Source: a virus (Duplodnaviria > Heunggongvirae > Uroviricota > Caudoviricetes). Taken from it: a stretch of 18,601 nucleotides of DNA. Shown here piece by piece: positions 5,651 to 7,849 of this stretch; position 1 is the stretch's first letter, and every line of letters starts with the position of its first letter. The notes beneath the pieces are model-generated. The model saw only the letters and a list, made by a program, of their open reading frames with translations. It was not told the DNA's origin and searched no databases. A program made the translations under genes and the position numbers. The stretch lies in IMG/VR virus record IMGVR_UViG_2711768044_000003. The stretch is one strand, 5' to 3'.

Positions 5651-6043
5651 TCAGAATGGTTTTGTTGCCATCAGTTTGTAATATCCGGCGCTCCATGTGT
5701 CATATTTTCTGAACCATTTTTCTGTATACTGTTTCCTGGCGATGAGTCTGCGTAGTCGTCTGATTGTTCGCTGGTGTGCGCGGGTATACTCTGTGGTTGA
5801 TTCTCCCCGTTTCCATGTCTCGTTCCCGTTGAATATAAAACGCATGTCAGGATAGCGCTGTCGGAAACCTGAACGTTCAAAAGCGCGGGTGGTCATAAAG
5901 AATGCTAGGTAACGAATTGCTGTTTTTCGGGTGAGGCATTTTTTTGTTCTCCCGTGGCGTGTTACAAAAAATAACGGACCGACGGGTGTATCATGTTTCT
6001 GTAGTGCCTGGTCAATGGCGCTTGTGATGCGGTTGTCGATCAT
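5651..6043 (-). CDS. Hypothetical basic protein (130 aa)
   Basis: ATG at 6043 preceded by GGGAG. Lys/Arg-rich, no recognisable motif. Confidence 0.5.
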   Translation of the reverse strand: MIDNRITSAIDQALQKHDTPVGPLFFVTRHGRTKKCLTRKTAIRYLAFFMTTRAFERSGFRQRYPDMRFIFNGNETWKRGESTTEYTRAHQRTIRRLRRLIARKQYTEKWFRKYDTWSAGYYKLMATKPF

Positions 6044-6258
6044 TTCTTTATTTCTCCCGAATAACGTTCATGACTCATTACTTCCCAGTTCCGGCCGTCG
6101 TCTTTCGATAACAACCGCCAGCGACGGTTAACCTTCAGACTGAGATATCCGGTGCGCTGTATCCGATGCGGAAATATCCGTTGGCATCTGTACCGCCTCA
6201 GGACCAGCAACGCCTGCTGGTGGACCCACTCAGGAATGCGTGTTGCTGTTAATGTCAC
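6040..6258 (-). CDS. Hypothetical protein (72 aa)
   Basis: GTG start at 6258 preceded by AGGAGG at 5-nt spacing; stop overlaps the next start as ATGA. Confidence 0.5.
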   Translation of the reverse strand: MTLTATRIPEWVHQQALLVLRRYRCQRIFPHRIQRTGYLSLKVNRRWRLLSKDDGRNWEVMSHERYSGEIKK

Positions 6259-6445
6259 CGGTTTCCTCCTGAGCAGGTGCTGTTATCTGATATCCCGCTC
6301 TTTCTGACAGCCGTATGAAAGTATCCATGCTGGCAATCAGCTCGTTATCGCGGACCTTGCAGACACCTGTTACCTGGCCATTTTCAATTGTCATAACGAT
6401 CTGCACTTTTTCGTGCACAACAGATACAGGGGATAAATTAGCCAT
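6230..6445 (-). CDS. Hypothetical protein (71 aa)
   Basis: ATG at 6445 preceded by GGAGG; overlaps the upstream stop by 1 nt (TGATG). Confidence 0.5.
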   Translation of the reverse strand: MANLSPVSVVHEKVQIVMTIENGQVTGVCKVRDNELIASMDTFIRLSERAGYQITAPAQEETGDINSNTHS

Positions 6446-6804: not shown

Positions 6805-6988
6805 TTGTTATTTCCCGTATGCTTTTCTGAGAAACAGTATTGCAACTGACCAGTATCCGGCACTGGCCATTAATAAAGCAGTTTTATAAGCACTTTTATT
6901 TTTCATGCATCATCTCTGTTTTCAGATTGTGAAAATCCCCGGCCAGAGGTCGTCATGTTTCTGTGTGTGATTTTTTATTGAGAATTCT

Positions 6989-7180
6989 TTATTCGTTACG
7001 CAGTGTATCGATATATTCGTAAGCCATTTCGCAGGTTTTATTCATGGACCTGATGAGGCAACATAAATAATCGTCCGTCTCTCCTGAGTCGGGAGAATTC
7101 TTAAATATAAATTCAAGCATTGATGTATTCTCTTTTATTTGTGCCGCCACTTCCTCAAGAATATTTAATGGAGTTTTCAT
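6989..7180 (-). CDS. Small acidic protein, possible third paralogue of the 7177..7368 family
   Basis: 63-aa ORF, ATG at 7180 overlapping the upstream stop (ATGA). Weak similarity to the two upstream domains. Confidence 0.5.
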   Translation of the reverse strand: MKTPLNILEEVAAQIKENTSMLEFIFKNSPDSGETDDYLCCLIRSMNKTCEMAYEYIDTLRNE

Positions 7181-7368
7181 GTTCTTTGCTCCTTAAATGC
7201 ATCGCATGCGCTTCTGGCGTATTGTTGTGCAAGTAAAAAGATGTCATCCGAAAGTTCATCACATTCTTCATCACCGGAAGCCGAAATGATTAACCCCGCT
7301 TCAAGCAGTACGGCAATGTGATGAAAAGCTGTTTCCGGTTCGTTGGTAAGGCCTTTGAACATTTTCAT
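7177..7368 (-). CDS. Small acidic protein, paralogue of the N-terminal domain of the 7370..7816 gene
   Basis: 63 aa from the ATG at 7368 (track ORF extends to 7401), preceded by AGGAAG. AFHHIAVLLEAGLIISASGDEECDELSDDIFLLAQQYARSA aligns with ALKNTAVLFEAGYLLATSNNHEYSEIGDTIVALATDYAFKV of the neighbouring gene. Confidence 0.55.
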   Translation of the reverse strand: MKMFKGLTNEPETAFHHIAVLLEAGLIISASGDEECDELSDDIFLLAQQYARSACDAFKEQRT

Positions 7369-7369
7369 C

Positions 7370-7816
7370 TTATGCTTCCTCCTGATTTTGTTTATAAGCA
7401 CCAGTCAGTAACCACATTGGATCACAGCCAAGAACATTTGCCAGAGGGATAAGCATGCTGATGGTTGGTTCGTACTCTCCGCTCTCCCACTGGATGATAA
7501 TTTCTTCATCGAGATCGAGCAGCCTGGCGAGTTCGGCAGTTGTTAAGCCGCAGGCTTCGCGTTGGGTGCGAAGGTTAACCATGTATTCAGGCTGTTTTTC
7601 AGAAGAAATATTTTGCCTTGAATAAAAAATTGCGTTTTTTACTTTGAAGGCGTAATCAGTGGCCAAAGCAACTATGGTATCGCCAATTTCACTGTATTCA
7701 TGGTTATTTGATGTGGCTAATAAATATCCAGCTTCAAAAAGAACGGCGGTATTTTTTAGCGCATCCAGTGGGTGCATGGAAAAGCCATTAAAAGTCAGAG
7801 TCGGTTGTGCCCTCAT
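7370..7816 (-). CDS. Two-domain protein: paralogous N-terminal domain plus C-terminal XRE-type HTH
   Basis: 148 aa from the ATG at 7816 (GGAG upstream); track ORF extends to a TTG at 7882. C-terminal LRTQREACGLTTAELARLLDLDEEIIIQWESGEYEPTISMLIPLANVLGCDPMWLL is a Cro/C1-type helix-turn-helix. First gene downstream of the putative oL/pL. Confidence 0.6.
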   Translation of the reverse strand: MRAQPTLTFNGFSMHPLDALKNTAVLFEAGYLLATSNNHEYSEIGDTIVALATDYAFKVKNAIFYSRQNISSEKQPEYMVNLRTQREACGLTTAELARLLDLDEEIIIQWESGEYEPTISMLIPLANVLGCDPMWLLTGAYKQNQEEA

Positions 7817-7849
7817 CTCATTAACTCCATCTACTTTGAATGAGAGCAT

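Follow-up and report, generated by a model that had tools for sequence, protein, structure and literature searches.

The early leftward operon of a lambdoid Escherichia prophage opens with a cassette of three small, translationally coupled genes, in which a predicted two-helix domain (alpha-hairpin) fused to a helix-turn-helix (HTH) domain is followed by a free-standing paralog of that hairpin and by a free-standing hairpin of a second class, the latter homologous to the N-terminal module of a sister regulator. The cassette occupies positions 6989-7816 of IMG/VR virus record IMGVR_UViG_2711768044_000003, an 18,601-nt stretch of DNA (hereafter the window) that is 91-96% identical to E. coli prophages across the cassette region (BLAST). 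From the organization of the genes, their promoter and operators, the paralogy, the predicted folds, the conserved gene order, selection and co-variation, we infer that the hairpins may oligomerize and hetero-associate, with consequences for regulation; tentatively, and with somewhat less than even confidence, we propose by analogy a SinI/SinR-like arrangement in which the free hairpins would form mixed helical bundles with hairpin-HTH proteins. A first-pass annotation made from the sequence alone had placed three minus-strand open reading frames (ORFs) here, where we also find them, and the features of the cassette are as follows.

Gene 1: 7370-7816, minus strand; 148 amino acids (aa), start codon ATG at 7816, Shine-Dalgarno (SD) sequence GGAG at 7826-7829; type A alpha-hairpin, linker and C-terminal XRE-type HTH.
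Gene 1 N-terminal domain (N-domain), residues 1-68: 7613..7816, minus strand; beta-hairpin at residues 7-14, helices at 16-34 and 39-67; phrog_4587 family.
Gene 1 HTH, residues 81-140: 7397..7576, minus strand; Cro/C1-type, isoelectric point (pI) 4.05, net charge -7; a DNA island between mosaic breakpoints.
Gene 2: 7177-7368, minus strand; 63 aa, free-standing hairpin; start codon ATG at 7368, SD AGGAGG at 7378-7383 within gene 1.
Gene 3: 6989-7180, minus strand; 63 aa, free-standing two-helix hairpin of a second class; SD AAGGAG at 7189-7194.

Judged by sequence comparison, gene 2 is a paralog of the N-terminal hairpin of gene 1. The two share 21 of 59 residues (36%) in an ungapped BLASTP alignment (E 2e-11), reach a z-score of 16.9 against 500 shuffles in Smith-Waterman comparison, and are both recognized by the profile of phrog_4587, the PHROG family of gene 2 (E 1.6e-33 for gene 2 and 1.3e-11 for residues 8-56 of gene 1). 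The motif that the first-pass annotation had seen in common between the gene 1 N-terminus and gene 2 is thus borne out, as is the fusion of the first gene to an XRE HTH, which Pfam HTH_3 (PF01381) places at residues 82-136 (E 1.3e-11; 44.8 bits versus a cut-off of 23). Gene 3, which had been put forward as a weaker member of the same set, fails the comparison with shuffled controls (Smith-Waterman z -0.4 and -0.2 in comparisons with gene 2 and the gene 1 N-domain); BLASTP detects no similarity to either (E 6.8 and 4.4), alignment of its family to phrog_4587 by hhalign gives E 0.37, and the protein itself has no phrog_4587 match. Gene 3 does resemble the N-domain of P0097, a cluster of 193 sequences that represents a sister regulator with the same HTH as gene 1: the identity is 34% over 64 aa (E 2e-10, z 16.8), and the P0097 N-domain matches phrog_6882, the family of gene 3, at E 1.1e-12. 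Gene 3 is therefore a free copy of an alternative N-terminal module from the same regulator family; it belongs, by these sequence criteria, to the same functional set of modules as genes 1 and 2 while being no demonstrable paralog of them. Gene 2 in turn has a relative fused to HTH in other phages, the N-domain of P0196, to which it is 49% identical over 59 aa (E 1e-15).

The hairpins have escaped existing family descriptions. Gene 1 falls into phrog_4739 (E 1.6e-55) and phrog_4836 (E 1.3e-41) and gene 3 into phrog_6882 (E 9.2e-41); of the four cassette PHROGs, three are without known function and one is labelled only 'CII-like regulator', and none of these computed clusters records that the hairpins are common to fused and free forms. 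No Pfam family matched the gene 1 N-domain or gene 2, and for gene 3 Pfam gave only a sub-threshold chance match (E up to 1); searches of NCBIfam and PADLOC returned matches at the level of the HTH only, so that the hairpins are uncovered by all three collections, and sequence searches of the PDB with genes 2 and 3 gave no match. In databases, members of these clusters are named only 'hypothetical protein' or 'helix-turn-helix domain-containing', and a literature search for the cassette, of incomplete coverage so that prior work is possible, found no paper or family name.

Structure prediction agrees with a hairpin in both classes. The AlphaFold2 model of gene 1 (mean predicted local distance difference test score, pLDDT, of 72, with block means of about 89-93 over residues 21-50) shows the N-terminal hairpin, a low-confidence linker and a five-helix HTH; its predicted template modelling score (pTM) of 0.42 means that the hairpin and the HTH have no fixed orientation in the model. 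The gene 3 model is a two-helix hairpin with helices at residues 4-28 and 33-62 (pLDDT 92), whose nearest matches in the fold search, designed as well as natural hairpins, build helical bundles, none of these matches being significant (E above 0.5); the fold search with gene 1 returned generic HTH matches only. A common fold in the gene 1 N-domain and gene 3, which the first-pass annotation had proposed to look for by structure prediction, is thus predicted and fits the idea of an array, but carries little weight by itself, alpha-hairpins being common.

The description of the array as a set of acidic domains holds for genes 2 and 3 (pI 4.45 and 4.42), but not for the gene 1 hairpin, which is near neutral (net charge -1); in gene 1 it is the HTH that is acidic. 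This HTH superposes well on those of P22 c2, 434 and C.AhdI (Foldseek template modelling score, TMt, 0.8-0.9; root mean square deviation 1.1 A to P22 c2 and 434). Its net charge is -7 to -9, and its presumptive recognition helix begins with DLDEE; the charge compares with +2 for the HTH region of cI and +4 for Cro in the same phage and with +2 to +7 for textbook XRE DNA binders. The single-HTH protein of the window may, to judge from this composition, not bind DNA in the usual style, which leaves the DNA-binding role assumed in the first-pass annotation uncertain. By analogy to Mor, which binds CI in phage TP901-1, the acidic HTH could be a protein-binding one. A comparison of immunity types for a conserved operator of the HTH upstream of gene 1 gave none, the upstream regions being type-specific. 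The HTH is near-invariant across immunity types, with ratios of nonsynonymous to synonymous substitution rates (dN/dS) of 0.00-0.14 at dS up to 0.9, values that indicate real constraint on the protein as opposed to recent exchange of DNA. A near-invariant acidic HTH joined to a hypervariable N-domain is an unusual evolutionary pattern and calls for a specific conserved target.

A second HTH is present in many gene 1 homologs, and distant relatives have as many as three or four (P0144); in such multi-HTH relatives the last HTH can be basic (+4). Single-HTH forms (P0008, P0101 and the window protein) resemble deletion derivatives of two-HTH forms (P0005, P0015 and P0034). Their C-terminal tail, CDPMWLLTGKPTxGDTCA, is that of the second HTH, which suggests recombination between tandem HTH repeats.

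The cassette is placed at the head of the leftward operon by the following elements.

pL-like sigma-70 promoter: 7876..7848, minus strand; -35 TTGCTA at 7876-7871, 17-nt spacer, -10 TATTAT at 7853-7848, located by consensus scan.
OL-like operator palindrome: 7850..7890, no strand assigned; 41 bp, inverted repeat I3 with 20-nt arms that are 85% complementary.
cI-like repressor: 7949-8695, minus strand; adjoins the cassette upstream; Peptidase_S24 E 5.5e-15, HTH_3 E 7.9e-7.
OR-like operator patch with pR-like promoter: 8757..8794, no strand assigned; TTGCTAT/ATAGCAA half-sites common to the pL patch.
YdaS-type Cro: 8800-9042, at the Cro position.

A spacer of 132 bp separates cI from gene 1. The OL-like palindrome contains three TTGCTAT half-sites (7858-7864 on the plus strand, 7870-7876 and 7876-7882 on the minus strand) and shares a 12-nt exact inverted match with 8763-8774 in the cI-cro region, where the pR-like promoter (8765-8793, plus strand) has an identical TTGCTA -35 element that lies inside an operator half-site. 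Of the six copies of TTGCTAT in the 18.6-kb window, five fall inside the two patches that flank cI. Phages of other immunity types have strong promoters of their own at the pL position, some with a terminator after cI. The shared half-sites and the equivalent promoters in other types lend good support to the putative pL, downstream of which the first-pass annotation had correctly set the array, and make gene 1 the first pL gene. The stop codon of gene 1 is followed after a single nucleotide by the start codon of gene 2 (TAAgATG), and the start of gene 3 overlaps the stop of gene 2 (ATGA, 7180-7177); with SD sites of their own, the three genes are built for coupled translation. We conclude that they are the first, translationally coupled genes of the early leftward (pL) operon. 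Two other start codons were considered and set aside: GTG 7401 for gene 2, in favour of ATG 7368, and for gene 1 the in-frame ATG 7849, which gives the 159-aa form found in some annotated genomes and overlaps the -10 hexamer. The stretch had also been called AT-rich, which holds to a modest extent (GC 41.9% for the cassette and 36.5% for gene 3, versus 47.3% for the window).

We then compared related loci, comprising 80 from IMG/VR, the window, three annotated genomes and further look-ups, which are not phylogenetically independent. Across homologs of gene 1 the HTH is almost constant, whereas at least nine N-domain types (labelled A to I) are found in front of it; the HTH segment is shared, among others, by phiP27 and Stx2a phages. 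We sorted the hairpins into three classes: the gene 2 family, that of gene 3, and types D/E/I. Members of the two families are found fused to the HTH and also, within that operon, as free small genes; the free form of D/E/I is a 75-aa gene in a distant locus, whose likeness was read by eye and not scored. Further matches of the phrog_4587 profile are the type C N-domain (7.4e-7) and, at 6.8e-28, the C-terminal half of a 121-aa protein, which in many loci follows the regulator in place of genes 2 and 3. Gene 3 has a weak link to the type D hairpins (z 4.4, hhalign E 0.013). A likeness between type B and type I N-domains (z 6.9) was discarded, as it is located in the shared linker and not in the hairpin.

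The N-domain type follows the immunity type: each of five cI types is accompanied by one N-domain type wherever both could be classified (52, 13, 11, 5 and 2 loci). The module downstream of the regulator is shuffled, with genes 2 and 3 found behind types A, B, C, D and F, the 121-aa protein behind A, C, D and F, and a 66-aa free version of the hairpin following the P0097-type regulator. BLAST alignments break near 7412-7419 and near 7570, at either flank of the HTH-coding DNA, so that the conserved HTH acts as a recombination anchor and adjacency alone explains the linkage of cI to the N-domain. A gene-2-family hairpin ORF lies within 2 kb downstream in 88 of the 91 loci that have the HTH, joined in 32 of them by a gene-3-family ORF, and the order cro, cI, hairpin-HTH gene, hairpin gene is kept in distant relatives, often with one-base gaps. 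Strong purifying selection acts on the free hairpins as well (dN/dS 0-0.13 for gene 2 and 0.02-0.08 for gene 3).

The 121-aa protein offers evidence for co-variation. Its N-domain is orthologous in three lineages (36-47% identity), while its C-terminal hairpin differs between lineages, and in two of them this hairpin is closer to the N-domain of the upstream regulator (scores 98 and 132; 43% and 42% identity) than to its own ortholog (score 62). Together with the gene 1-gene 2 pair of the window (36%), these make three lineages in which the hairpin of the regulator and that of the next gene are paralogs at similar distance. Such co-variation, read from the sequences, is what matched interacting pairs would give.

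A profile search with a 136-position profile, HTH columns included, was dominated by HTH proteins and recovered distant hairpin-HTH relatives and one free hairpin (P0262); two scans of genome contigs gave no confirmed relative except one distant Clostridia HTH. Among the relatives, a 176-aa protein (L081, 3788-4318) is a deletion fusion that joins a type D regulator to the very end of the 121-aa hairpin protein. Additional small ORFs in tandem (64, 61 and 44 aa) lie downstream of distant regulators in L092 (4092-4468) and L096 (3187-3321); these look like extra helical hairpins of other types, in which case the array can hold at least three hairpin genes.

Association between hairpins is favoured because the free proteins share homology with a regulator domain, are co-translated with the regulator, are kept adjacent to it and co-vary with it. 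An isolated two-helix hairpin of about 55-60 residues would be expected to bury its hydrophobic face by pairing with another to give a four-helix bundle. The N-terminal hairpin would then set the oligomeric state of the HTH protein and its choice of partner, and free hairpins made at the same time would form mixed bundles with hairpin-HTH proteins, be it those of their own phage or those of co-resident prophages, and could thereby modulate or poison them. The first-pass annotation had likewise envisaged a regulator with duplicated, diverging partners; that layout fits and gains strength from the related loci (the 88 of 91 and the co-variation), while titration or decoy action is something that we infer. 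One special form of hairpin association, very unlikely in its own right, would make the free hairpins 'poison subunits' in conflict between prophages. They would be stand-alone copies of the hairpin types of rival heteroimmune prophages and would jam the early hairpin-HTH proteins of those rivals in dead-end mixed bundles, a pressure that would diversify the N-terminal hairpin along with the immunity type and leave the HTH unchanged. This would explain why gene 2 is closer to N-domains of other phages than to its own neighbour (49% versus 36%), why gene 3 matches a hairpin type that its own regulator lacks, and why several hairpin classes are found in one operon.

Several findings weigh against association between hairpins, chief among them the frequent mismatch between a free hairpin and the N-domain next to it: genes 2 and 3 occur behind hairpins of types C, D and F, of which D and F have no detectable similarity to gene 2. 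In the window itself, gene 2 is closer to the P0196 N-domain than to that of gene 1. Gene conversion between adjacent paralogs would yield the same co-variation, and the gene order could be near-universal through linkage to the HTH, at whose 3' end recombination occurs, and not through function, in loci that are not independent. Alpha-hairpins are generic and the fold searches gave no significant match for gene 3; the acidity of the HTH makes canonical DNA binding, and hence a SinR-like output, doubtful; and relatives with two to four tandem HTHs may dimerize without a hairpin.

The free/fused mismatch favours either action on the regulators of other prophages or a different explanation, rather unlikely in our estimate, in which the hairpins are independent early effectors, that is, host-takeover or anti-defence proteins, each with its own host or defence target, encoded first from pL and diversified by module swapping. 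Gene 1 would join one such effector to a conserved HTH regulator, much as AcrIIA1-type fusions do. This explanation suits an early operon that opens with small acidic proteins (pI about 4.4), and it also suits the many unrelated hairpin types on one constant HTH, the fusion of a hairpin to an unrelated N-domain in the 121-aa protein, and the strong purifying selection within types combined with wholesale replacement of types. However, no defence or anti-defence model matches the proteins, the PADLOC matches being confined to the HTH; independent targets would not predict that the hairpin of the 121-aa protein co-varies with that of the neighbouring regulator; and the acidity of the HTH counts against the explanation, as does the lack, across types, of a conserved operator upstream of gene 1 for an autoregulating HTH. 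The co-occurrence of one hairpin type with one cI type in every locus classified for both could alternatively reflect direct contact, with gene 1 as an immunity-specific antirepressor: the hairpin would dock on the cognate cI and the acidic HTH would mask the basic DNA-binding surface of cI, giving positive feedback once pL fires, and the free hairpins would compete for, or target, repressors of the same or other prophages. Gene 1 is the first pL gene and adjoins cI, its HTH has a charge of -7 compared with +2 for the HTH region of cI and +4 for Cro, TP901-1 and phi13 offer a precedent in the HTH protein Mor, whose target is the N-terminal domain of CI (PMC11149083), and cross-prophage antirepressors exist in Salmonella (PMC3121763). 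We consider such an antirepressor quite unlikely nonetheless: adjacency fully explains the linkage, there being no shared homology between cI and the hairpin that would permit recombination between them, the S24 autocleavage domain of cI makes an antirepressor unneeded for SOS induction, and a single near-invariant HTH would have to deal with cI proteins of very different types. On docking to cI, the AlphaFold2 model is uninformative.

Hairpins might also bind the conserved HTH itself, the N-domain in cis and gene 2 in trans, and so gate its activity, which would account for a gene-2-family gene accompanying the HTH in 88 of 91 loci whatever the hairpin class of the regulator, and for translationally coupled expression. 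Yet AlphaFold2 does not pack the N-domain on the HTH (pTM 0.42, low-confidence linker), both partners are strongly acidic, and the gene order follows from linkage to the HTH 3' end; we hold this to be highly unlikely. The toxin-antitoxin-like set that the first-pass annotation had offered as one option, in which gene 1 would be an HTH antitoxin and genes 2 and 3 toxins or co-factors, is extremely improbable. The HTH gene is indeed tightly coupled to small genes, and its HTH has weak similarity to HipB, MqsA and other antitoxin families, but these matches come nowhere near the cut-offs of the families. Searches of Pfam, NCBIfam and PADLOC assign neither gene 2 nor gene 3 to a toxin or antitoxin family; both are acidic helical hairpins homologous to a gene 1 domain (gene 3 through the P0097-type regulator), the ParE-like ORF at 6040-6258, further down the operon, is the only toxin-like gene, and the regulator gene can occur with other downstream modules in place of genes 2 and 3.

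The model for hairpin-hairpin association comes from Bacillus subtilis, in which SinI and the C-terminal domain of SinR supply a pair of helices each, the pairs hooking together as a four-helix bundle between the two proteins, and SinI changes the quaternary state of SinR (PMC3163267). SinR/SinI and SlrR/SlrA share with the cassette an XRE-type HTH protein that has a two-helix domain (oligomerizing in SinR, only a predicted hairpin here) and an adjacent small gene that encodes a paralog of the two-helix domain alone (here gene 2, E 2e-11, a situation that recurs in other lineages). In SinR, however, the HTH is N-terminal, whereas in gene 1 the hairpin (residues 1-68) precedes the HTH (81-140); the cassette proteins have no sequence similarity to SinR or SinI; and the cassette opens an enterobacterial prophage early operon, with two free hairpins of different classes and an acidic HTH. 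Because of the reversed domain order, the lack of sequence similarity and the atypical HTH, the cassette is not a member of the SinI/SinR family.

Other systems share single aspects of the arrangement. AcrIIA1-type proteins combine a constant HTH with interchangeable small domains, and their phage early locus also carries stand-alone small proteins; the HTH of AcrIIA1 is N-terminal and autorepresses its own promoter. The cassette differs from them in that it has no homology to them, shows no sign of anti-CRISPR or anti-defence activity and has no conserved operator upstream of gene 1. In arbitrium Bacillus phages, which likewise pair a phage repressor with a small helical protein, AimX has been proposed to bind AimC directly and to prevent its oligomerization, and the authors liken the pair to SinI/SinR (bioRxiv 10.1101/2025.11.23.689978); these belong to another phage group, are controlled by peptide signalling and have no sequence relationship to the cassette, in which gene 1 is encoded from pL and is not the prophage repressor. 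Mor of TP901-1 and phi13 is a small protein of HTH fold whose gene opens the lytic operon; it acts by binding the N-terminal domain of CI and not on DNA by itself (PMC11149083, PMC7250872). It is a precedent for a protein-binding HTH such as the acidic one described here, but Mor sits at the Cro position, which is filled here by the YdaS-type Cro, and comes without a hairpin or free paralogs. Finally, truncated H-NS paralogs such as H-NST are horizontally acquired free oligomerization domains that antagonize the full-length DNA-binding protein through mixed oligomers (PMC7074111), in an unrelated fold family and with a host target as opposed to a phage one.

The cassette holds the most promoter-proximal position of the early operon, that of N in lambda, in many E. 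coli prophages, including Shiga-toxin (Stx)-converting phages. If the hairpins hetero-associate, the logic of SinI/SinR, in which a free oligomerization domain serves as antagonist, would extend to the development of enterobacterial prophages; this would provide a handle on insulation and interference between co-resident prophages and would bear on the induction of Stx phages. Defining the hairpin families, absent as they are from Pfam and NCBIfam, would improve the annotation of thousands of genomes.

No N-like antiterminator was recognized in the phage, and the cassette proteins gave no Pfam or PHROG match to one. Elsewhere the window encodes a helicase, a primase and a Bro-N/ORF6N antirepressor, and its left end is occupied by a 437-aa ORF (1-1314), in a place equivalent to that of the integrase in related loci. 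The rightward late-regulatory region contains a Q-like antiterminator (13277-14107, plus strand), two tRNA genes (16848-17004, plus strand) and two tandem copies of the small RNA STnc100 (17878-18341, plus strand); an Rfam scan gave no match in or near the cassette. A run of about 10 G residues (9043-9052, plus strand) directly follows the cro stop codon, ahead of a gene at 9071-9379 (phrog_852), and may be prone to slippage.

Downstream of the cassette, the 184-bp gap between gene 3 and a 119-aa gene contains a conserved 32-aa micro-ORF, MKNKSAYKTALLMASAGYWSVAILFLRKAYGK (6808-6906, minus strand), with a conserved CGCCGGGGAT motif just upstream of it. Peptides resembling the product of this micro-ORF and ending in LRKAYG[KR] are encoded at the equivalent position in five related loci (L033, L079, L085, L089 and L094), where they adjoin the next gene. 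Further down the operon, a 72-aa ORF (6040-6258, minus strand) encodes a ParE-like toxin domain (PF24732, E 6.8e-18) and overlaps the end of a 71-aa gene (6230-6445, minus strand; phrog_340, with a weak match to an antirepressor PHROG), with which it may form a toxin-antitoxin pair within the pL operon.

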